Positions 2,558-62,853 of a stretch of DNA of 64,000 bases are shown in pieces; the stretch's first letter is position 1, and each line of letters begins with the position of its first letter. Position numbers and translations under genes: made by a program. The notes under the pieces were generated by a model, which saw only the letters and a program-made list of their open reading frames with translations, ran no database searches and was not told where the DNA came from. Source of the stretch: an uncultured Gammaproteobacteria bacterium (GTDB lineage: Bacteria; Pseudomonadota; Gammaproteobacteria; Thiotrichales; Thiotrichaceae); assembly GCA_963760355.1 (NCBI GenBank), contig CAVXCT010000034.1:1311-65310 (forward strand), given 5' to 3'.

Positions 2558-2620
2558 ATTTCATGAGTCGTCCATTCCAAAAAATGAAATGGCAAGCTCA
2601 TGGAAAGTAGAGGGGTGACT
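2558..2620 (-). repeat. REP-like arm (degenerate) with outer hairpin
   Basis: aaagtagaggggtgac at 2604-2619, preceded by a catgag(2562-2567)/ctcatg(2597-2602) stem; lies between convergent genes. Confidence 0.6.
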
Positions 2621-5750: not shown

Positions 5751-8113
5751 ATGAATACCTATAATGTGATCTGGTTAGATCAACTTGGCATAAATGATAT
5801 TGACAGCGTAGGGGGTAAAAACGCCTCTCTCGGTGAGATGATTCAAAATCTCGGTAATTTAGGGGGTGAATGTACCCGGAGGGTTTGCGACAACCGCTGA
5901 TGCCTATCGTGGATTTCTGGAGCACGAAAATCTTGGTAATAAAATCAATGCTTTATTAGATGAACTTGATGTAGACAATCTTGAAAGTCTAGCCAAAACA
6001 GGTAAGCAAATTCGTGACTGGATCATGCAGGTTCCATTGAAAGAAGACCTTGAAGATGATATCAATGCAGCCTATGCAAAACTGGTCGGACAATACGGTG
6101 AGGAGGTTTCATGGGCAGTTCGTTCGTCAGCAACCGCTGAAGATTTACCGGATGCGTCATTTGCAGGTCAACAAGAAACCTTCTTAAACGTTTCTGGTAT
6201 TGAAGACATCAAAGTAGCCATTCGTAAGGTTTTCGCATCATTATTTACTGATCGTGCTATCTCATACCGCGTCCATCAGAATTTTGATCATGCAGGCGTC
6301 TGCGTTGTCGGCGGGCATTCAGAAAATGGTTCGTTCAGACATTGCAGCCAGTGGTGTTATGTTTACGCTAGATACTGAAACAGGCTTTGATAAAGTAGTA
6401 TTTATCACTGGCAGTTATGGACTTGGTGAAATGGTGGTGCAGGGTGCTGTGAACCCTGATGAATTTTACGTTTATAAAAAGAACCTGACTGAAAACAAAC
6501 CGGCAGTACTCACACGAACACTAGGTAGTAAAGCGATACAAATGGTTTACGATATCGGTGGTGAAGAGCCCGTTAAAATCATCGATGTTGAAGCTGATAA
6601 ACAAACCAAATATTGCATAACGGATGAACAAGTTGAAGAACTGGCTAGACAAGCTGTCATTATAGAAAAACATTATAAACGCCCGATGGATATTGAGTGG
6701 GCGATGGATGGCAACGATGGAGGACTTTATATCGTTCAGGCTCGACCTGAGACTGTACAAAGCCAGGCGGGCAATGTTATTGAACGCTTTAACTTAAAAG
6801 AACAAGGACCGATTTTGTCAGAAGGACGCTCCATCGGTGGTCGTATTGGCGCAGGTACAGCACAAATCATCATGAGCCTTGATGATATGGATCAGATCAA
6901 GCCCGGCGATGTACTAGTTACAGATATGACAGATCCAGACTGGGAGCCAATTATGAAACGTGCCTCAGCCATAGTGACTAATCGCGGTGGACGTACCTGT
7001 CACGCAGCCATTATTGCACGTGAACTCGGCGTGCCCGCAGTGGTAGGTTGTGGCGATGCTACTGAGACCATCCCGGATAATGAAGATGTTACTGTATCCT
7101 GTGCCGAAGGCGATACTGGTTACGCTTATCAGGGTTTACTTAATTTTGAAGTTACCACAACTGAAGTTAATACCATGCCTGAGCTGGATTTAAAGGTCAT
7201 GATGAATGTTGGTAATCCAGATAAAGCCTTTGATTTCTGCCAGCTACCCAATAAGGGCATAGGTCTGGCTCGTATGGAATTCATCATTAATAATATGATT
7301 GGCATTCATCCGCGCGCATTGCTGGATTATGAACAACAATCAGATGAACTTAAATCAGAGATTGATCCGCGCATTTCAGCTTATGCAAGCCCACGAGACT
7401 TTTTCGTGCAAAAAATTGTTGAAGGTGTGTCTACCTTAGCCGCTGCTTTTTACCCACAACCAGTTATTTTGCGCATGTCGGATTTTAAATCGAATGAATA
7501 CGCAAATCTAATCGGCGGCACAGAATACGAGCCACATGAAGAAAACCCGATGATTGGTTTCCGTGGTGCAGTGCGTTATATCGATGAAACCTTCCGCCCG
7601 TGTTTCGAAATGGAATGCGAAGCGATTAAATACGTACGTGATGTGATGGGATTAACCAACATTGAAGTAATGATTCCGTTTGTACGCACATTGAAAGAAG
7701 CTAAAAGTGTGACTAAATTACTCGCTAAAAACGGTTTAGGGCGTGGTGAAAATGGTCTACGCCATATAATGATGTGCGAATTACCATCCAATGCTGTTTT
7801 AGCAGGTAAATTCCTTAAATATTTTGATGGATTCTCGATTGGCTCTAACGATATGACACAGCTGACATTAGGTCTGGATCGTGATTCTGGTCTAGTTGCT
7901 GAAAGCTTTGACGAGCGTGACCCTGCAGTTAAGAAAATGCTTAAAATGGCAATAAAGGCAGCGAAAAAGCAGGGAAAGTACGTTGGCATCTGTGGTCAAG
8001 GCCCTTCAGATCACCCAGACCTTGCAGAATGGTTAATGAAACAAGGAATCGATAGCGTCTCGCTAAATCCTGATACAGTAATTAATACCTGGAAACGTTT
8101 AGCGGCTAAATAA
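5751..8113 (+). CDS. ppsA: Phosphoenolpyruvate synthase, two +1 frameshifts
   Basis: ATG 5751 ([11 protein letters not shown]); shifts at G-run ~5861-5866 and at ~6300; [36 protein letters not shown]. Confidence 0.95.
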
Positions 8114-8141: not shown

Positions 8142-8253
8142 AAAAAAGGCTAAGCCGTAGCGTAGCAGAGACTACGCTGGAAAGCAGTGACGGCTGCCCG
8201 AAGGGCGTGTTTTTCATTTAAAATGATAAAAAACACCTAAAAGTAGGGGGGTG
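8142..8253 (-). repeat. REP-like arm plus module C (long outer hairpin module)
   Basis: Reverse complement aligns with 28059-28171 and 61378-61471: cacccccctactt, hairpin, gcccttcggg, hairpins, tagcc-T6. Confidence 0.85.
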
Positions 8254-8703: not shown

Positions 8704-9924
8704 TTAAACCTGCATCTTTAAAGGTATAGCCTCTCTAGCTAATAGTTCCGCCGTAGACATCGCTATCATGGCCCGTTCATTGATTGGGATGAAATGTACA
8801 TCGACTATAGATTGATCACTGCTTATTTTATGTAGACTACTTTCATTGGCAATATTATTTAACTCGACACCAAGCCAAGCTAATGGCTCACTTATTAATT
8901 TTCTAGTTAAATCCGAATTCTCACCAATGCCTGCAGTAAATACAATCGCGTCTATGCCTCTTAAAACGACTATCTGCGCACCAATTTCTTTTACAACTCT
9001 GTAGCAGAATAATTCATCGCTTCTGGCTTCTTTGGCTTCTGGATCAGAACTTTCTGCAAGTACACGCATATTGTTACTGATTCGTGAAACGCCTAATAAT
9101 CCTGATTTACGATATAAAATGTCTTGTACTTCATCCGCACTTGAACTTTTTTCATTTCTTAGGTCTATAACCAAACCCGCATCAGATTGAGCCGCTACGC
9201 GTGCCCATAACTAATCCATCTAATGTGCTAAAACCCATAATAGTCGCAACGCTACGTTTATTGTGCAGCGCACAAAAGCTTGCGCCATTACCAAGGTGAG
9301 CAAAAATTATCCGTCCATTCGCTTTATCACCTAAGTCCTTTGATAAGCGTGAAGCAATATATTGATAAGATATTCCATGAAAACAGTAACGAATAAGTCC
9401 ATCTTCAGAATATTTTCTGGGAATGGCATATATTTTCTCTAAACGACTTTGCGTATGATGAAAAGCAGTATCAAAACAGGCTCTTTGTGGTAATTCTGGC
9501 GAATGATCCCTAATTGTTTGTATCGCAAGCTAAGCAATGATGTTGATGCAATGGCGCAAGCGGAATATAACTCCTCATGGTTTCCATATTTTCATCGTTT
9601 ATAACGATAGGCTCATGGGACTCACTGCCTCCATGAACGACTCTATTACCAGCTGCTACAGGATGAAAAGCCACGTAACGACTGTATAAACGTTCTAGAA
9701 GATTAGTAATTAACCATACGTGAGTCCGCATCTTTAGGAATATGATCGAATGGTTCAGTGACTGTTAAAGCATTATCGCCTATGGAAGCAATCAGTTCTG
9801 GTTGTGTGCCAATACGTATAACTTTACCTTTAAGCAGTGGTTCTGTTAAATGTGAAGATACAGGACATGAAGCAAATTTTAAGCTTGATGAGCCTGAATT
9901 TACTACTAAAATGACATCAATCAT
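8704..9924 (-). pseudogene. ackA: Acetate/propionate kinase, three +1 frameshifts and substitutions in conserved motifs
   Basis: VILVVNSGSSSLKF; GNRVVHGG; APLHQ; ACFDTAFH; RYCFHGISY; AHLGNGAS; GTRSGSI; VFTAGIGENS, spread over four frame segments. Confidence 0.75.
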
Positions 9925-9972
9925 GGTTTGGGGTTTGCTTTTAAAAGAAGTGTATTTCGATATTAAGAAGTA

Positions 9973-9998
9973 CACCCCCCTACTTTTAGCGAGCTTTT
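9973..9998 (+). repeat. REP-like arm
   Basis: cacccccctacttttagcgagctttt, ~50 bp upstream of the ackA start. Confidence 0.8.
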
Positions 9999-10131: not shown

Positions 10132-10905
10132 TTATAGCTCAAATAGCCGATTAAAATTATCTGTCGAAACTTTAGCAATATGTGGATAGCTACAGCCGCG
10201 TAAGTCAGCCATCTTCTCTGCAACATGCTTCACATAGGCGGGTTGATTCGGTTTGCCACGTTTTGGTACAGGGGCTAACCACGGAGAGTCCGTTTCGATA
10301 AGAAACCTATCTTCAGGTACTTTCTTAGCTACTTCTTGTAACTCTTTGGCACTATTGAAAGAAACTATCCCTGAGAAAGAGATATAGAAATTAAGTTTCA
10401 TTGCTTGTTGTGCAGTTTCCCAGTCTTCTGCAAAACAATGCATGACACCCCCCACCTTTTGAGCATTTTCTTCCGCCAGGATACGTAACGTGTCTTCTTT
10501 GGCGGAACGGGTATGAATGATGAGTGGTTTCTGGGTTTTTATGGCTGCCCTTATATGCGTTCTGAATAGATCATGTTGCCAGGTCATATCGTCATCTTCG
10601 CATCTGAAATAATCGAGCCCTGTTTCCCCTATTGCAATAACTTCTTGGTGCTGAGTTAATTCCACTAACTCCTCAACTGTAGGAGCATACGAGTCTTGAT
10701 GAGTTGGGTGAACCCCAACAGAACAATAGATATTTGAATATTGTTGTGCCGGTTTCAATACGTCCTGGAAGTGTTCGGTATCAATACAAACACACAGAAA
10801 TTGGCTGACATCTGCTTCTTCAGCAACATCTACCATTTTCGAGAATTGGTTATCGAAAGGAGTTAAATCAATTTTGTCTAGATGACAGTGTGAATCGGTA
10901 AGCAT
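10132..10905 (-). CDS. TatD-family DNase
   Basis: DSHCHLD, GVHP, IGETGLD, IIHTR, GVMHCF, ETDSPWL. Confidence 0.93.
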   Translation of the reverse strand: MLTDSHCHLDKIDLTPFDNQFSKMVDVAEEADVSQFLCVCIDTEHFQDVLKPAQQYSNIYCSVGVHPTHQDSYAPTVEELVELTQHQEVIAIGETGLDYFRCEDDDMTWQHDLFRTHIRAAIKTQKPLIIHTRSAKEDTLRILAEENAQKVGGVMHCFAEDWETAQQAMKLNFYISFSGIVSFNSAKELQEVAKKVPEDRFLIETDSPWLAPVPKRGKPNQPAYVKHVAEKMADLRGCSYPHIAKVSTDNFNRLFEL

Positions 10906-16125: not shown

Positions 16126-16872
16126 TTATGACATAAACATGCCGCCATTCACGTGTAATGTTTCTCCTGAAATATAATCCCCCATATCTGAGGCTAAAAA
16201 CAGTACAGCATTTGCAATATCATCTGCTTGGCCTAATTTACCCAATGGAATATTTTTTAGTAATGTACTGCGCTGATCTTCAGATAATTCACGAGTCATA
16301 TCTGTATCAATTAAACCAGGCGCAACGACATTAACCGTAATCCCTCTGGATCCAATTTCTTGTGCTAAGGATTTTGAGAATCCAACCATGCCCGCTTTAG
16401 CTGCTGCATAGTTTGCCTGACCTGCATTACCGGTAGCACCGACAACAGAAGAAATTGAGATAATTCGCCCATTCCTTGCCTTCATCATTCCTCTTAAGCA
16501 GGCTTTGCTAAGTCTATAAACAGAAGTGAGATTAGTAGAGATAATGTCATTCCACTCTTCTTCTTTCATTCTTAACATCAAGTTATCACGTGTAATGCCT
16601 GCATTATTCACAAGAATCGTGATAACGCCAAACTCTGTCGTGATGTCTTTTATTAAATCGTCAATAGAATCAGTATCTGTTACATTTAATACTTTACCAA
16701 CACCATTTATATCTGCTTGTTTGAAGTAATCACTTATGGAATTGGCACCAGAATCACTAGTAGCAGTGCCGATGACGGTAGCACCAGCTTTACCAAGTGA
16801 TTCTGCAATTGCGCGACCTATGCCTCTGCTAGCACCGGTTACCAGAGTTACTTTTCCTTCTAAATTAATCAC
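16126..16872 (-). CDS. fabG: 3-oxoacyl-ACP reductase
   Basis: TGASRGIG, NNAGITRD, YAAAK. Confidence 0.97.
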   Translation of the reverse strand: MINLEGKVTLVTGASRGIGRAIAESLGKAGATVIGTATSDSGANSISDYFKQADINGVGKVLNVTDTDSIDDLIKDITTEFGVITILVNNAGITRDNLMLRMKEEEWNDIISTNLTSVYRLSKACLRGMMKARNGRIISISSVVGATGNAGQANYAAAKAGMVGFSKSLAQEIGSRGITVNVVAPGLIDTDMTRELSEDQRSTLLKNIPLGKLGQADDIANAVLFLASDMGDYISGETLHVNGGMFMS

Positions 16873-20223: not shown

Positions 20224-20287
20224 GCTGTGACTATAGGATAACGATGTTCAATAAACAACAATTCTAGTCGTCTATACTCTCCATTCT

Positions 20288-20313
20288 ACCCCCCTACTTT
20301 AGTGGCATTTTTT
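20288..20313 (+). repeat. REP-like arm
   Basis: acccccctactttagtggcatttttt in the aceK/glcB divergent region. Confidence 0.75.
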
Positions 20314-24787: not shown

Positions 24788-25019
24788 AAAAATGGCCTAT
24801 AAGTAGGGGGGTGGCTTTATCTAGAATAAGCGTCTGACCCTGATCGAGTATTAAACATCGAAGATTCCTTGCCGAATCTACGATGGTCTTTTCTGGCTCT
24901 TGGTGAACGTTAAATCAAAATACTTTTGATGTTGAAATATTATTAGTAGATTAACGACTATTGCACAGCGGCTTTAGCTAAGTTTGGTAAAGCCACTCCC
25001 CTACTTTTAAGCAGTTTTT
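24788..25019. repeat. REPIN-like doublet (inverted arms) with internal modules B and D
   Basis: GTAG at 24803 and CTAC at 25001 on inverted arms; internals match 43881-43960 and 29972-30084; between convergent maeA and recR. Confidence 0.85.
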
Positions 25020-28058: not shown

Positions 28059-28171
28059 GCCACCCCCCTACTTTTACATGGTTTTTTAATTTAGCCTAAT
28101 GAAAACCATGCCCTTCGGGTCATCGTCATGCTTCCGATGTTGTCTCTCTAACGTTCGGCTAGGCACTTTTT
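28059..28171 (+). repeat. REP-like arm plus module C
   Basis: gccacccccctactt, catggtttt/aaaaccatg stem, gcccttcgggt, ..., ggctaggcacttttt; between ffs and dnaX. Confidence 0.85.
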
Positions 28172-28230
28172 CTTATTACTCATGAAATTAATAATTGAGG
28201 AAGAAGAAGATTCGAATAATTAAATTCGTT

Positions 28231-28345
28231 GGAGGTGACCCACACCAGCTACACCTCGGCACCCGAATCCACTACTACCGTTGCTCCCTTCCGGGCCTGG
28301 CGGGGTTCGCAGTTTATCGTCGCGAGGGAACCAATGTGAGTCTCC
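28231..28345 (-). ncRNA. ffs: Signal recognition particle 4.5S RNA
   Basis: Minus strand contains gccaggcccggaagggagcaacgg (SRP domain IV) in a long hairpin closed by ggag...ctcc; ffs-dnaX synteny. Confidence 0.92.
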
Positions 28346-29904: not shown

Positions 29905-30151
29905 AGCTGGGTGGCTTTATAATTATGGTCACCCCACTACTTCTATGAGGTTTTTTAATCTCATATCCGGTTACTTTTGATGTTGAAAAATTGTTAGTCG
30001 ATTATCGACCAATGTACAACGACAATTCCGTGAGGAATCTACGATGAACTTTTCTGGCTCTTGATGAGCCTAGAAAAGCCACCCTCAGACTTCGTGCCGT
30101 CGTCACTGTGTACAACGTTGTCTACGCTGCGCTTCGGATAAGCCATTTTTA
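29905..30151 (+). repeat. Composite REP-like element (mini doublet, hairpin, modules D and B, degenerate arm, 3' half of module C)
   Basis: 30005-30084 matches 43881-43960 at 68/80 nt; 29972-30021 matches 24921-24970 at 42/50 nt; 3' end taagccattttt overlaps the nagZ stop. Confidence 0.85.
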
Positions 30152-31156
30152 GACAAATGCTGTAATTTCCTCCACAGTTTCTGCCCAGCGTTTCGTGTCT
30201 AATAAGGCAGAACGATTCATGAATGGTTTACCTTGCATACGCAGTAAACGTTGTGCTGATTCTGCGCTATGGTTAATTTTAGCATTGTCTAAAACTTCAA
30301 TTGCTCCGGCACGATTATTACAAACTAAAACCATATCGCAACCCGCATCAATTGCAGCTTCGGCGCGTTGGGCAAAATTACCCATCACCGAGGCACCTTC
30401 CATAGTTAGATCATCACTGAAAATCACACCATCAAAAAGTAATTCATTTCGCAGTACTGTTTGTAACCAGTATTGGGAAAAGCCTGCAGGTTTGTCATCT
30501 ATTTCTTTATAGATAACATGCGCTGGCATTACAGCGTCGAGACCCTGTTTAATCAAATCAGCAAAAGGAATAATATCTTCTTGCCAGATTTCTGCTCTAC
30601 TACGTTTATCCACAGGAATTTCATGGTGTGAATCCTCTAATACTGCACCATGCCCAGGAAAATGTTTACCCGTAGATGCCATCCCTGCTTCACGCATACC
30701 TTTGATATATTCTGTAGCCAATGCAGAAATGGTTTTAGGATTACGGCTAAAGGAACGATCACCTATGACTTCGCTAACACCAAAGTTGACATCGAGCACA
30801 GGAGCAAAACTGAAGTCGATATCCATTGCACGTACTTCGGCTGCCATCAACCAACCATGTGAATAGGCTTTTTTTTCTGGAGAATCTGTATTTGCTAATT
30901 GAGCTATTGCAGGGAGTTTGGTGAATTCTGGTCGAAAACGTTGTACGCGACCGCCTTCATGGTCAACACAAATCAATAAAGGTTTATCTTTTGCTGATTC
31001 CCTAACGCTACTCACTAAATGTGAAAGTTGTTCTGTGGTTTCGTAGTTTCTGGTAAAGAATATAATGCCACCTGTGAGTGGATGATTGAGTAATTCTTTT
31101 TCTTCCTGAGTGAGTTCGGTTCCAACTAAATCCAGCATTACAGGTGCGATACCCAT
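30149..31156 (-). CDS. nagZ: Beta-N-acetylhexosaminidase
   Basis: VDHEGGRVQRFR, KHFPGHG, DSH, FSDDLTMEGA. Confidence 0.96.
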   Translation of the reverse strand: MGIAPVMLDLVGTELTQEEKELLNHPLTGGIIFFTRNYETTEQLSHLVSSVRESAKDKPLLICVDHEGGRVQRFRPEFTKLPAIAQLANTDSPEKKAYSHGWLMAAEVRAMDIDFSFAPVLDVNFGVSEVIGDRSFSRNPKTISALATEYIKGMREAGMASTGKHFPGHGAVLEDSHHEIPVDKRSRAEIWQEDIIPFADLIKQGLDAVMPAHVIYKEIDDKPAGFSQYWLQTVLRNELLFDGVIFSDDLTMEGASVMGNFAQRAEAAIDAGCDMVLVCNNRAGAIEVLDNAKINHSAESAQRLLRMQGKPFMNRSALLDTKRWAETVEEITAFV

Positions 31157-37657: not shown

Positions 37658-37685
37658 CACCCCCCTACTTATAGCCAGTTTTTTT
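37658..37685 (+). repeat. REP-like arm
   Basis: 37653-37677 is identical over 25 nt to the reverse complement of 62830-62854. Confidence 0.85.
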
Positions 37686-41625: not shown

Positions 41626-43830
41626 TTGCAGATACCAAACATAATGAACAATACGAAAATGAAACTTAAATTCCCATTTTTGAATACTTTTTTAAAGTAC
41701 TCATTGTTCACAGTCATGCTTTCAATAACTTCTGGTTGTTTAGGAACACCACCTGCCGGGACTTCTTTAATTGAGTCTGCAAATGCTGCTGAAAAAACAG
41801 AAACAAGCCTTGAGCAACTAACGCCAAGACATACGTTTGAATACAAAATTATCAATAGTATGTTGAAGCGCTATCATTATAAGAAGTTTGAGCTAAATGA
41901 TGCTTTTTCTGGAGAGATACTCGATCAATATATAAAACAACTTGATCCAAGCCGTATTTATTTCACCCAGGCGGATATTGATCAATTTAACCAACACCGT
42001 GATAAATTTGATGATTATATTAATGCGGGTGAAACCGAAGTAGCGGTAAATATTTTCAAGAAATATCAGCAACGTGTCAATGAACGCTCTAAATATGCGA
42101 TCAAGCGTCTCAATCAAAAAATCGATTTCAATAAAGACGAAGACTACAATCTAGATCGTGAAAAAGCGAGATGGGAAGTTAATGAAACAGCTTTGAATAT
42201 GCTTTGGGACAAGCGTATAAAAAATGAATACATCAATCAAATACTCTCTGATGAGAAGCCTGCAAAAGTCATAGACAAACTGAATAAGCGTTATGCCAGT
42301 ATGACTAAGAGAACCAACCAGATAAAAAGCAATGAATTATTTCAGACTATTGTAAATGCTTATGCAGGTGCAATAGAACCACATACATCTTATCTATCAC
42401 CTCGTTCGTCTGAGCAATTTGATATAAATATGAGTCTATCCCTTAGTGGTATAGGTGCAGTCCTTAGAACAGATGAAGAACATACTAAAATTATTAGTGT
42501 CGTTCCAGGTGGGCCAGCTGATCTAACAGGCAAAATATCAGCAGGAGATAGAATTATTGGTGTTGGTCAAAAAACTGAAAAAAGTATTAAAGATATCGTT
42601 GGTTGGCGCTTAAGCGATGTAGTTAATATTATTCGTGGTAAAAAAGGCAGCACAGTCGTTTTGTCAGTATTGCCTAACGAAACTGGTTTAAGTGGTAATG
42701 CTAAGACAGTTAAAATTGTGAGGGATAAAATTAAACTTGAACATCAGGCAGCAAGTAAAAGAATCATTGAAATAGAAAGGCCAGAAGGGAAAGTAAAGGT
42801 TGGTGTTATTGATCTACCTTCTTTTTATATTGATTTTAAAGCCCGTAATCGCGGTGATGCTGAATACGCAGGAACCACCCGTGATGTTAAAAAACTGCTA
42901 ATTGAATTAAACAAAGAAGGAATCGATGATTTGATTATTGATCTGCGTGGTAACGGTGGTGGATCATTAAGTGAGGTTGTTTCATTGACTGGTTTATTTA
43001 TCGATCAAGGCCCTGTAGTGCAAATCAATGACACCACAGGAAGAACTGATATATTGCGCGATAATGATTCTGAAGTTGCCTACAGCGGCCCGATGGCCGT
43101 ATTAATCGATAAAGGTAGCGCTTCAGCGTCTGAAATATTTGCAGGAGCAATACAGGATTATAAACGTGGTGTGATTATAGGTGAAACCACATTTGGTAAA
43201 GGTACGGTTCAAACTGTGTTACCACTTGAGTCTTACACCCGTAAAACCTTTGATAAACCTTTAGGTCAGATCAAAATTACTAGCGCTCAGTTCTTCCGTA
43301 TAAATGGTGAAAGCACACAACACAAAGGTGTGGTGCCTGATTTATCGTGGGATTTACCACAAGTAGAAGGTGATTTAGGAGAGCGCGCATTTAAGAATGC
43401 TCTTCCTTGGAGACGCATTGAAATGGCTAAGCATAAAGACTATCAAAAAGCATTTGGCGTTACAGCTCTTCAACAAGCGAGAGCAAAGTCAGCAGAACGT
43501 ATTACCAATGATCCTAAATTCAAAACAACGGTTGCTAGAGTAAAACTGTTAGTGGATGCCGGCAATGAAAAGGTCGTTTCTCTTAATTTGAACAAACGAA
43601 AAGCCAAGCGAGCTGATTTTAATAAGCAATTATTAGCTCTTGAAAATAACCTGCAAAAGGCAAATGGTTTGCCAGCGTACAAAACCATTAAAGAATTACG
43701 TGATGCACAAGAAAAGAAAAACGATGATATCTTTACAAAAAAGCCTGTTGATGTTTTCCTGAATGAAGCAGCGCATATATTGACTGATTTACAAAAATAT
43801 AATGTTATGGCTGCAGACGCTAATAAATAA
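41626..43830 (+). CDS. prc: Carboxy-terminal processing (tail-specific) protease
   Basis: PHTSYLSP, PDZ domain, IIDLRGNGGG, SASASEIFAGAIQD, GKGTVQ; exact start uncertain. Confidence 0.93.
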   Translation: MQIPNIMNNTKMKLKFPFLNTFLKYSLFTVMLSITSGCLGTPPAGTSLIESANAAEKTETSLEQLTPRHTFEYKIINSMLKRYHYKKFELNDAFSGEILDQYIKQLDPSRIYFTQADIDQFNQHRDKFDDYINAGETEVAVNIFKKYQQRVNERSKYAIKRLNQKIDFNKDEDYNLDREKARWEVNETALNMLWDKRIKNEYINQILSDEKPAKVIDKLNKRYASMTKRTNQIKSNELFQTIVNAYAGAIEPHTSYLSPRSSEQFDINMSLSLSGIGAVLRTDEEHTKIISVVPGGPADLTGKISAGDRIIGVGQKTEKSIKDIVGWRLSDVVNIIRGKKGSTVVLSVLPNETGLSGNAKTVKIVRDKIKLEHQAASKRIIEIERPEGKVKVGVIDLPSFYIDFKARNRGDAEYAGTTRDVKKLLIELNKEGIDDLIIDLRGNGGGSLSEVVSLTGLFIDQGPVVQINDTTGRTDILRDNDSEVAYSGPMAVLIDKGSASASEIFAGAIQDYKRGVIIGETTFGKGTVQTVLPLESYTRKTFDKPLGQIKITSAQFFRINGESTQHKGVVPDLSWDLPQVEGDLGERAFKNALPWRRIEMAKHKDYQKAFGVTALQQARAKSAERITNDPKFKTTVARVKLLVDAGNEKVVSLNLNKRKAKRADFNKQLLALENNLQKANGLPAYKTIKELRDAQEKKNDDIFTKKPVDVFLNEAAHILTDLQKYNVMAADANK

Positions 43831-43835
43831 ATGCA

Positions 43836-43981
43836 TATAAGTAGGGGTGGCAATAAATTTATATTGGCATTTTATTTAGCTCGATCATTGTACATCGACG
43901 GTTCCTAACGGAATCTACTATGTACTTTTCTGGCTCTTGGTGAGCCTAGAAAAGCCACCCCCCTACTTTTAGCCTGTTTTT
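43836..43981. repeat. REPIN-like doublet with module B
   Basis: GTAG at 43841 and CTAC at 43963 on inverted arms; two internal hairpins (43890-43925, 43925-43954); between convergent prc and dgkA. Confidence 0.88.
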
Positions 43982-48959: not shown

Positions 48960-49212
48960 AAAAAAAAGGGGCGGCAGATTCTATGATCTGCCGCCCCCTC
49001 TGTCCTTGTACCTGAGAGAGTCCCTAAATCTACTAATAAATCTGTAATTTAGGTTAAACCCTTCGGTGGAAACTTTGTTTCACTCTCCAGAGTCAGTGTT
49101 TTTTTCTGCAGTCCTTTTACCTGAGCGTTTCCGAGCGGATTTGCGCCTTCGGTGTTCGACATCTTTAAAGTTAACCCTTAGCTAACTTAATGTTTGCCGA
49201 ATCTCTCCTGCA
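48960..49212 (-). promoter_or_regulatory. Tandem glycine riboswitch with terminator expression platform
   Basis: Aptamer 1 ggagag...caccgaaggcgcaa...ctcaggt; aptamer 2 ctctggagag...caccgaagg...ctctcaggt...acagag; then ggggcggcagat/atctgccgcccc plus T-run upstream of gcvT. Confidence 0.95.
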
Positions 49213-49282
49213 TAAAATTTAACTGAATTTTGAACTATACCTCAGCTTGAGTTAATGAGAAAGTAATTTAATAGATAACAAA

Positions 49283-55673: not shown

Positions 55674-55712
55674 GGAGGTGTATATACACCCCCGTACTTT
55701 TAAGCTGTTTTT
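55674..55712. repeat. Minimal REP-like doublet
   Basis: ggaggtgtat/atacaccccc hairpin followed by gtacttttaagctgttttt; between convergent genes. Confidence 0.65.
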
Positions 55713-61284: not shown

Positions 61285-61377
61285 AGAATTTATATAATAT
61301 TCAGAAATAATAAAGCGCTCAAAAATTAGCACTTTTTTATTTACAGGAGAATGAATCATTCAGTTTGATAGAAAAAT

Positions 61378-61471
61378 CACCCCCCTACTTATTACGTGTT
61401 TTTAACTTAAATTAATGAAAACACGCCCTTCGGGTTATTGTCTCGCCAAAAGGCTCGACTGGCTATTTTTT
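61378..61471 (+). repeat. REP-like arm plus shortened module C
   Basis: cacccccctactt, cgtgtttt/aaaacacg stem, cccttcgggt, ..., ctggctatttttt; between convergent dapC and dapD. Confidence 0.85.
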
Positions 61472-62542: not shown

Positions 62543-62824
62543 ATGTTGAACGTAAATGAATATTTTGAAGGAAAAGTTAAATCAATTGCCTATCAAACAG
62601 AAACACTACCCGCTTCTGTAGGCGTAATGTCAATCGGTGAGTATGTTTTCAATACTGCTGATAAGGAAACGATGATTGTAATTACAGGAGCGTTAGAAAT
62701 AACATTTAAAGATGCGGCTGAATCACAAACATTTAAAGCGGGTGAATCTTTCGATGTCGAGGCAAACAGTTCTTTTGATGTGGTAGTCAAGCAAGAAACG
62801 GCTTATCTTTGTACTTATGGTTGA
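62543..62824 (+). CDS. ppnP: Pyrimidine/purine nucleoside phosphorylase (DUF1255)
   Basis: NVNEYFEGKVKSI, SVGVM..GEY.F.T, F.V.ANSSF, AYLCTY. Confidence 0.92.
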   Translation: MLNVNEYFEGKVKSIAYQTETLPASVGVMSIGEYVFNTADKETMIVITGALEITFKDAAESQTFKAGESFDVEANSSFDVVVKQETAYLCTYG

Positions 62825-62853
62825 AAAAGTGGCTATAAGTAGGGGGGTGTCAA
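62824..62853 (-). repeat. REP-like arm
   Basis: aaaaagtggctataagtaggggggtgtcaa directly after the ppnP stop. Confidence 0.85.

Follow-up and report, generated by a model that had tools for sequence, protein, structure and literature searches.

We describe here a structured repeat, Module C, found in a 64,000-nt stretch of contig CAVXCT010000034.1 (GCA_963760355.1), which is referred to below as the window and whose numbering is used throughout. Module C is a non-autonomous insertion module of ~86 nt that belongs to a lineage-specific mosaic repeat family of marine, Cocleimonas-like Thiotrichales, and it sits at one fixed point within a 26-nt REP-like GTAG-G6 core. Selection maintains the pairing of its four hairpins, on one strand. 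Module C is not a gene but a structured mobile element of the REP or miniature inverted-repeat transposable element (MITE) kind, as yet undescribed, and its nested, core-docked architecture is unusual. The pairing constraint may reflect recognition and processing of the module as single-stranded DNA (ssDNA) by a trans-acting Y1 HUH-type enzyme, a reading that we infer and hold tentatively, a role as RNA also being compatible with it. Loci from other genomes or contigs that were compared with the window are designated by L-numbers (such as L027 and L034–L039).

Architecture of Module C

The copy at 8142–8253 (+) is ~112 nt long and reads AAAAAAGGCTAA, then GCCGTAGCGTAGCAGAGACTACGCTGGAAAGCAGTGACGGCTGCCCGAAGGGCGTGTTTTTCATTTAAAATGATAAAAAACACCTA, then AAAGTAGGGGGGTG. 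Its parts, and the two other copies of the module in the window, are as follows.

8142–8153 (+), left half-core L (AAAAAAGGCTAA), a resident sequence that is also present in the solo core at the orthologous ppsA site (L038 and L039 compared)
8154–8239 (+), Module C body of 86 nt, from GCCG to CACCTA, holding hairpins H1 to H4; 116.7 bits with the covariance model
8156–8170 (+), H1: a C-G pair, tandem GA/GA, a 2–3 bp stem and a triloop (here GC-GTA-GC)
8175–8195 (+), H2: a 5-bp stem (CGCTG/CGGCT), tandem GA/GA, a 2-bp stem and a GCA triloop
8197–8205 (+), H3: the CCC-GAA-GGG mini-hairpin
8207–8236 (+), H4: the outer hairpin, GTGTTTTT (8207–8214) pairing with AAAAACAC (8229–8236) around an AT-rich loop
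8240–8253 (+), right core R (AAAGTAGGGGGGTG), invariant and abutted by every body type
28061–28172 (−), second full copy, in the interval between the signal recognition particle (SRP) RNA gene and dnaX; 111.3 bits; H4 at 28077–28110, H3 at 28111–28119
61378–61471 (−), third copy, shortened, in the 3′ region of dapD; 77.4 bits; H4 at 61395–61425, H3 at 61426–61434

The consensus of the alignment described below (A1) runs from AAAAAGTGCCTA on the left into the body GCCGA-[H1]-GAGACAA-[H2]-N-CCCGAAGGG, and on the right from one H4 arm through the AT-rich loop and the other H4 arm to TA and then AAAGTAGGGGGGTG. H1 and H2 share a common design, in which a closing pair and tandem GA/GA are followed by a 2–3 bp stem capped by a triloop, and the loops of the module are mostly GNA triloops. 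In the 8142 copy, the minimum free energy (MFE) fold of H1 prefers a longer alternative stem (8158–8165 with 8172–8178). H1 begins 2–5 nt from the left junction and H4 ends 1–3 nt from the right one (H4 of the 8142 copy stops 3 nt short of the right core). GTAG lies 3′ of H4, 4–6 nt apart. As read from A1, the two ends of the body are not inverted copies of each other, and the module thus has no terminal inverted repeats (TIRs).

An earlier note on this DNA, made from the letters alone, had drawn attention to the outer hairpin next to the core. All five hairpins that it quoted are present, namely gtgttttt (8207–8214) with aaaaacac (8229–8236), catggtttt (28077–28085) with aaaaccatg (28102–28110), cgtgtttt (61395–61402) with aaaacacg (61418–61425), tatgag with ctcata (29944–29965), and catgag with ctcatg (2563–2601). 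Its three gccc-TTC-ggg motifs, described there as a GAA/TTC triloop, were also found and read CCC-GAA-GGG on the GTAG strand, that is, the strand carrying AAGTAGGGGGGTG, where they form the H3 of the three copies (8197–8205, 28111–28119, and 61426–61434). The outer hairpin is therefore real, but it does not stand free, being the last of four hairpins in a body of ~86 nt.

Compensatory changes in the four hairpins

The four-hairpin structure was imposed on A1, for which MAFFT had aligned 22 copies (from the window and from Cocleimonas genomes) without regard to structure, and compared with controls in which the pairing partners were shuffled (500 shuffles) or slid by 1–3 columns. A standard pair was formed in 93.3% of the cells, compared to 82.2% after shuffling (a level of 93.3% was reached in 0 of 500) and 35–58% after sliding. 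Twelve pairs were changed on both sides, where the shuffled controls gave 8.1 (2 of 500 reaching 12) and the slid controls 3–4, and the covariation score was 0.360 versus 0.176 for shuffled and 0.03–0.12 for slid partners. A lack of covariation, one of the two outcomes that would have refuted the earlier note, was not what A1 showed.

All parts of the fold contribute to this signal. Three of the four pairs of H1 (A1 columns 25–41) change on both sides, with 78% of its cells pairing, and five of the seven pairs of H2 (columns 46–66) are compensatory, with 96% of cells pairing; within H2, 14 of 22 copies conserve U·G at pair 49/63 and 21 of 22 retain GA..GA. Half of the eight H4 pairs covary, with counts of UA 11/CG 7, GC 17/AU 5, UA 13/AU 8, and GC 13/UA 5/AU 1. 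An anchored search extended the H4 sample to 26 distinct copies, in which 217 of 234 positions pair through 19 arm combinations, in agreement with the earlier claim that this hairpin keeps its pairing while its sequence changes; the tail between the H4 stem and AAAGTAGG measures 1–3 nt in these copies. H3 is invariant in A1 because of the search design. Copies recovered with the covariance model carry the H3 variants CCT-GAA-AGG, TCC-GAA-GGA, CTC-GAA-GAG, and AC-GAA-GT, with GAA, GCA, or GTA loops, and since these compensatory variants occur in copies found without that motif constraint, the local mini-hairpin is real. An alternative proposed by RNAalifold, in which the CCC of H3 pairs with the G-run, was ruled out by the local variants CCT/AGG, TCC/GGA, and CTC/GAG.

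Stems next to the core are also commoner than in shuffled sequence, a point on which the earlier note had made its proposal depend: a perfect stem of at least 6 bp starting at most 6 nt from the core was found at 5 of the 14 window cores, where dinucleotide shuffling gave 1.35 ± 1.0 and reached five in 3 of 500 cases. Single-sequence folding energies improve on those of dinucleotide shuffles only modestly (z of about −1.7 to −2.3), so the evidence for structure is the covariation and not thermodynamic stability.

Across the paired positions, 47 cells hold G·T and 4 hold A·C, a count that is inflated by the inherited columns 49/63 and 76/112. This excess of G·T over A·C means that the fold belongs to the GTAG strand, and together with the compensatory changes in H1 to H4 it upholds the suggestion that selection acts on structure in a single-stranded nucleic acid.

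Empty, filled, and nested sites

At the 3′ end of dapD, the window carries the shortened Module C, while L034, whose DapD is 95% identical and whose DNA is about 80% identical over 12.5 kb of synteny, has only a solo core (AAAAATTGGCTAAAAGTAGGGGGGTG), and the more distant L035 has no core. At the 3′ end of ppsA, the body is present in the window and in L037, which is identical there; C. flava (L038) has only AAAAAAGGATTAAAAGTAGGGGGGTG, and an uncultured Cocleimonas (L039) has a body with a quite different H4, CGCGG-CGAAAA-CCGCG. At both loci, the filled and solo sites differ by exactly the body. The variable 5-mer of the solo core matches the left half L, not the 3′ arm of H4, in the two comparisons, which means that both H4 arms belong to the insert. 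A candidate explanation in which the 3′ arm of H4 is target sequence copied on insertion, which would yield covariation for free, was ruled out by this match of the empty-site solo cores to L.

Modules are also found within modules. In C. flava, Module C itself holds an additional hairpin module of 82 nt, placed between H1 and GAGAC, which is missing from two close relatives at the same locus with near-identical flanks, and the arrangement recurs in L027. Bodies of a second type lie in the H4 loop of the type-1 body that defines Module C, and type-1 bodies lie at the R junction within type-2 elements. Taken together, the solo and filled orthologous sites and the nesting indicate that the body is a precise insertion/deletion unit.

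The GTAG-G6 core and its distribution

The solo core is a 26-nt sequence, AAAAA-N5-TA-W-AAGTAGGGGGGTG, whose left half is A-rich (AAAAA-N5-TA) and whose right half is AAAGTAGGGGGGTG; many sites carry nothing more. The form of L, an A-run followed by N5-TA, recurs in all solo cores. The 13-mer core CACCCCCCTACTT (AAGTAGGGGGGTG on the other strand) has 17 matches in the window at up to two mismatches, where 0.70 are expected and 0 of 100 shuffles reached 17, giving a density of about one core per 4 kb. Two of these matches, at 10446 and 17611, lie inside open reading frames (ORFs) with no repeat context and look like chance; the others are intergenic. According to a crude ORF map, 90 of 95 cores were intergenic.

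62824–62849 (+), solo core AAAAAGTGGCTATAAGTAGGGGGGTG, directly after the ppnP stop codon
3647–3671 and 24788–24813 (+), further solo cores
9973–9998, 20287–20312, 24994–25019, 37658–37685, 43956–43981, and 55687–55712 (−), further solo cores
55674–55693 (−), core-built terminator at sucB (L034:16641–16672), its position conserved in three genomes

The position of a solo core can be kept across genomes: the ppnP site is shared with L034 and the sucB site with L034 and L035, and at the site upstream of sucA the core is intact in L035 and degenerate in the window. L035 is from the more distant, Cocleimonas-like genome (about 72% DNA identity), and its orthologous sites carry the core variants AATGTGGGGGGGTG, AAGGTGGGGGGTG, and AAGCTGGGGGGTG (L035:12336–12348, 16591–16603, and 16631–16643), so the core appears to evolve in a lineage-specific manner. 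At sucB, the core forms an intrinsic terminator, GGGGGGTG-TATTTA-CACCCCCC-TTTTTT, with GTAG at its foot. The CACCCCCC partner, which allows G6TG to pair in a GTAG-footed hairpin, is present for only 12 of 105 cores, the remaining 93 having no partner arm. Inverted pairs of cores enclose other modules at 24788–25019 and 43826–43981.

Relatives were sought with the pattern CCCGAAGGG-N25–55-AAGTAGGGGGGTG, using one genome per species, and the window's own genome was not among the loci returned. The 33 matching loci all belong to Cocleimonas flava, uncultured Cocleimonas, or two gammaproteobacterial metagenome-assembled genomes (MAGs), and they match the window in the repeat alone (75–85% identity over 110–130 nt). 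The genes flanking the repeats in the window have ordinary housekeeping functions (ppsA, dnaX, recR, malic enzyme, prc, gcvP, dapD, and sucAB) and their closest homologs bear Cocleimonas names; the GC content is 34–40%. A metagenome scan with the 14-mer GAGACAACGTTGGA gave at least five true copies, the matches listed being mostly chance, and in metatranscriptome contigs coverage was confined to the conserved SRP RNA and a single 33-nt fragment of the core. The literature searched held no paper on Cocleimonas or Thiotrichales repeats of this kind.

What the paired strand may be selected for

The explanation that we put first, with reserve, is that the hairpins are kept because the module is recognized, cut, and joined as ssDNA. 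Most likely, a Y1 HUH enzyme (TnpA-REP or IS200/IS605 type) would do this in trans, working on the lagging-strand template; the GTAG-containing core would be its docking or target sequence, and H4 its subterminal hairpin. Lineages losing the pairing would cease to spread. Inserted copies lie in short intergenic regions, often 3′ untranslated, ahead of the real terminator, and there the same hairpins may secondarily act on RNA. The lack of TIRs, the precise junctions, the nesting, the strand-specific fold, the GNA triloops closed by C-G, and a skew bias all speak for such processing. GNA triloops closed by C-G, as in mini-hairpins of the d(GCGAAGC) type, are exceptionally stable in DNA; structured RNAs favour GNRA and UNCG tetraloops. 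The earlier note had raised ssDNA as used by HUH transposases, and this proposal suits a precise insertion/deletion unit without TIRs, with a constant GTAG-containing neighbour and GNA triloops, but it found no counterpart in a Y1 or HUH gene in the ~310 kb of sampled loci.

As for the bias, in 56 of 78 cases (p = 1.5e-4) the structured strand proves to be the one that is richer in G over ±4 kb around it (elements masked), and the count is 29 of 39 (p = 0.003) for convergent and divergent intergenic regions, where gene direction is uninformative. Several points weigh against processing as ssDNA. Local skew follows the majority gene direction too, so the bias is a proxy for replication direction only. 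No enzyme was found: tblastn with IS200 TnpA and YafM queries returned nothing at E<1 in about 310 kb of sampled loci, and all-against-all ORF clustering over the same sequence showed no recurrent ORF family and no transposase, though the sequence sampled amounts to no more than a few percent of each genome and the negative is therefore weak evidence. Raw MFE was lower on the GTAG (top) strand in 19 of 22 copies, but z-scores were similar whichever strand or parameter set (RNA or DNA) was used, so the raw difference between strands was dropped as evidence, and thermodynamics does not decide between RNA and DNA. The copies are 75–85% alike and near-identical paralogs of type-1 bodies were not seen, hence nothing points to a recent burst. 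TA(A) is the last sequence of L and of the body alike, which leaves room for a 2–3 nt target duplication (TA/TAA) at the junctions. Finally, the geometry is mirrored relative to canonical REPs, in which GT[AG]G stands at the 5′ foot of a palindromic hairpin (PMC6006769), the covarying hairpin of Module C lying 5′ of GTAG instead.

We regard it as unlikely, if well worth weighing, that Module C is rather a cis-acting RNA element, co-transcribed in 3′ (or 5′) untranslated regions, whose hairpins are selected locus by locus as RNA. It might then serve as a barrier to 3′ exonucleases, a protein-binding site, or an attenuator in which H3 with its U-run competes with H4, mobility being the mere mode of arrival. 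Stop codons are often only a few nucleotides away from long elements, and many copies come directly after the stop codon and before the real terminator, as such an element should. The majority state of pair 49/63 is U·G and tandem GA is common among RNA motifs, the 8142 copy has a terminator-like score for H3 with the following T-run, genomes that are 72–80% identical retain solo cores at orthologous sites, and the G-run at the sucB site is the stem of an intrinsic terminator. However, orientation fits poorly. Convergent contexts count as "same" orientation by construction, so that only co-directional intergenic regions are informative on transcription, and there the structured strand is sense for 24 and antisense for 15 cores (p = 0.2) and splits 9 to 7 for the long elements, leaving roughly 40% that would not be transcribed as the folding strand. 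This high antisense share speaks against RNA as a universal constraint. The small loops are moreover all triloops, mostly GNA closed by C-G, the type stable in DNA, and there is no Rfam match: an Rfam 15 scan of the whole window returned SRP RNA and a glycine riboswitch only, with no family for the repeat, and the best sub-threshold scores of two Module C copies were 12–17 bits for cut-offs of 39–60. The ssDNA and RNA readings are not mutually exclusive.

More doubtful is the idea that the GTAG-GGGGGG core is a genome-wide docking site, with Module C and its sister modules inserting into the core and into each other at fixed points as cassette-like, structure-defined ssDNA (or RNA) modules, moved by an enzyme that bears no relation to the known REP and IS200 systems or by a new Y1 subclass of mirrored geometry (hairpin 5′ of GTAG). 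If true, this would be a new type of nested, site-specific bacterial mobile system.

We give little credence to a mechanical origin of the covariation, in which intrastrand template switching between quasi-palindrome arms, or gene conversion and module swapping, would produce it with no function. Module swapping and nested replacement clearly occur, and the arm variants of H4 have a combinatorial look, each of four pairs having two states, as recombination among few alleles would yield. But the same pattern is seen in four separate hairpins, including 2–3 bp stems (H1, the inner stem of H2, and H3) too short for templated repair; non-Watson-Crick features have been conserved and not "corrected" (GA/GA in 21 and U·G in 14 of the 22 copies); and the model of a target-derived 3′ arm of H4 failed when tested, the empty-site solo core matching L.

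Even less credible is a weak intrinsic terminator cassette, in which H3, with the T-run in the 5′ arm of H4 behind it, would terminate transcripts of the gene upstream. A consensus scan does flag TGCCCGAAGGGCG plus TGTTTTTCAT on the ppsA strand, and the position just past stop codons would be apt, yet the stem has only 3–5 bp and the T-run is paired in H4. H4 itself lacks the GC-rich hairpin with direct T-run of an intrinsic terminator, being followed by TAAAAGTAGG on one strand and CCCTTCGGG on the other, so that only the H3 and H4-arm combination, with its 5-bp stem, is flagged at all. At dapD, a separate, strong, and real bidirectional terminator (61312–61335) is retained downstream of the Module C copy and is kept in the window and in L034. 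Antisense copies are also common, and H1 and H2 with their covariation would be left unexplained.

An independent family of small RNA (sRNA) genes with their own promoter would account for the compact size (~110 nt) and the conserved multi-hairpin fold, but it is very improbable, as the upstream flanks are unaligned in A1 with nothing conserved before the A-run and hence no conserved promoter, the 8142 copy has no promoter-like site, no terminator stands at the end, and the bodies nest, are present or absent at orthologous sites, and match no Rfam family.

Comparison with known repeat systems

The module family resembles REP/BIME/REPIN-RAYT systems in being a high-copy, intergenic, lineage-specific repeat (its matches being Cocleimonas only) with a conserved GTAG, in keeping its pairing while the sequence differs, and in forming mosaic, BIME-like assemblies. 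It also shows occasional inverted core doublets (24801/24994 and 43835/43956), as REPs and REPINs do, and at the sucB site GTAG stands at the foot of a G6TG/CACCCCCC hairpin, as in REP. TnpA-REP requires GTAG and a hairpin, and its ssDNA cleavage and joining have been proposed to yield BIME variants (PMC3333891). Unlike in REP, the unit is a four-hairpin, 86-nt body and not a single palindrome, and unlike in REPIN-RAYT systems, where the repeats flank their cognate tnpA-REP (RAYT) gene in a REPtron, no RAYT gene was found in the ~310 kb sampled.

With IS200/IS605 elements and their miniatures (PATE-type MITEs), Module C shares the lack of TIRs, subterminal hairpins near both ends, an apparently precise junction beside a fixed short sequence, and a strand-specific structure. 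Its orientation bias, as judged by the skew proxy, is consistent with the lagging-strand-template bias shown by IS200/IS605 (PMC5027513). The differences are that no tnpA or tnpB partner was seen with Module C in the loci sampled, that the fixed flank is a 14-nt GTAG-G6 core and not a tetra- or pentanucleotide, that the end hairpins H1 and H4 are unlike each other, and that the bodies nest at defined points. Classical MITEs have TIRs and a target-site duplication; Module C is without TIRs, and only the inverted-core composites at 24788–25019 and 43826–43981 are TIR-like.

Modular repeats of other bacteria offer a looser parallel. NIMEs are Neisseria RS units bounded by 20-bp dRS3 repeats, dRS3 being a small inverted repeat used by a Piv/IS110-type integrase, and pneumococcal BOX modules are tandem, not nested. 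As in Module C, a short conserved repeat bounds interchangeable intergenic modules of 50–150 nt, or the element is modular (A/B/C-like) and hairpin-rich; there is no sequence similarity to Module C, and neither is known to show compensatory changes running systematically through four hairpins. The attC sites of integrons are recombination sites of variable sequence and conserved single-strand fold, read on one strand, features that Module C has in common with them. Unlike attC, it was seen without R″/R′ (GTTRRRY) core sites, cassette ORFs, or an integrase context, and its copies are dispersed and not arrayed.

Small structured intergenic repeats such as REP, BIME, BOX, Correia, and NIME shape bacterial genomes, and the mode of spread is known for very few of them. 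The Module C family has an unusually clean record of compensatory change, over four hairpins and on one strand only, and orthologous sites display its empty (solo-core), filled, and nested states, the docking sequence being fixed. The mobilizing enzyme and its recognition rules are directly testable in a cultured host, C. flava DSM 24830, and the family may reveal a mirrored or new variant of HUH-type ssDNA processing. For annotation, programs that predict terminators, sRNAs, and MITEs will be misled by the cores and modules in genomes and MAGs of Thiotrichaceae.

Other modules and features of the window

The same core also forms the end of a second body type and of further modules.

2562–2617 (+), a different body type: a single long interrupted hairpin, CATGAG...CTCATG, directly before the core variant AAGTAGAGGGGTG
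29925–30155 (−), composite element: the 5′ part of Module C (H1–H3, 30070–30155), then other modules; 39.1 bits

The other modules of the composite include a repeat family at 30005–30092, then TATGAG/CTCATA (29944–29965) and a core variant. This repeat belongs to a separate module family of ~90 nt with a long hairpin, CTTTTCTGGCTC...GAGCCTAGAAAAG, directly 3′ of the core (24844–24931, 30005–30092, and 43881–43968), which in two places is enclosed by a pair of inverted cores, as in a REPIN or "double-foot" REP. Two metagenome copies are arranged differently: in L087 (1229–1324), the type-1 body begins 2 nt past a complete core, in tandem, and in L056 (184–296), a GC-richer copy keeps H1–H3 and has a different 3′ part without H4 or core.

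The SRP RNA gene (69 bits) lies at 28240–28336 (−), next to the Module C copy that separates it from dnaX, and the glycine riboswitch (63 bits) at 49099–49220 (−), upstream of the gcv genes. An ORF between the inverted cores at 8253 and 9973 was considered as a RAYT and turned out to be a fragmented acetate kinase gene. This ackA (8704–9975, −) is broken into at least three ORF fragments (N-terminal, MIDVILVVNSGSSSLKF..., middle, and C-terminal) and is either a pseudogene or the result of assembly indel errors. ppsA is read in two overlapping frames, 5866–6378 and 6254–8113 (+), implying a frameshift; it is also called as two genes in the near-identical contig L037, and several genes are split in L034. 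This suggests homopolymer indel errors in these long-read MAG contigs, because of which run lengths (A, T, and G) within the repeats may be inexact.

Viral sequences were searched for the core and gave 83 matches, which is the chance level, plus one unrelated phage repeat. In the related phage contigs L162–L164, L170, L185, L187, L188, L204, L215, and L227, a repeat ending in ...GATACCACATTACATAAAACAAAAGTAGGGGGGTGAGAGGAATG stands just before start codons and looks like a promoter, leader, or ribosome-binding unit. It contains an exact 13-mer of the Cocleimonas core, a match that is probably a coincidence; GGGGGGTG is complementary, with G·U pairs, to the anti-Shine-Dalgarno sequence.

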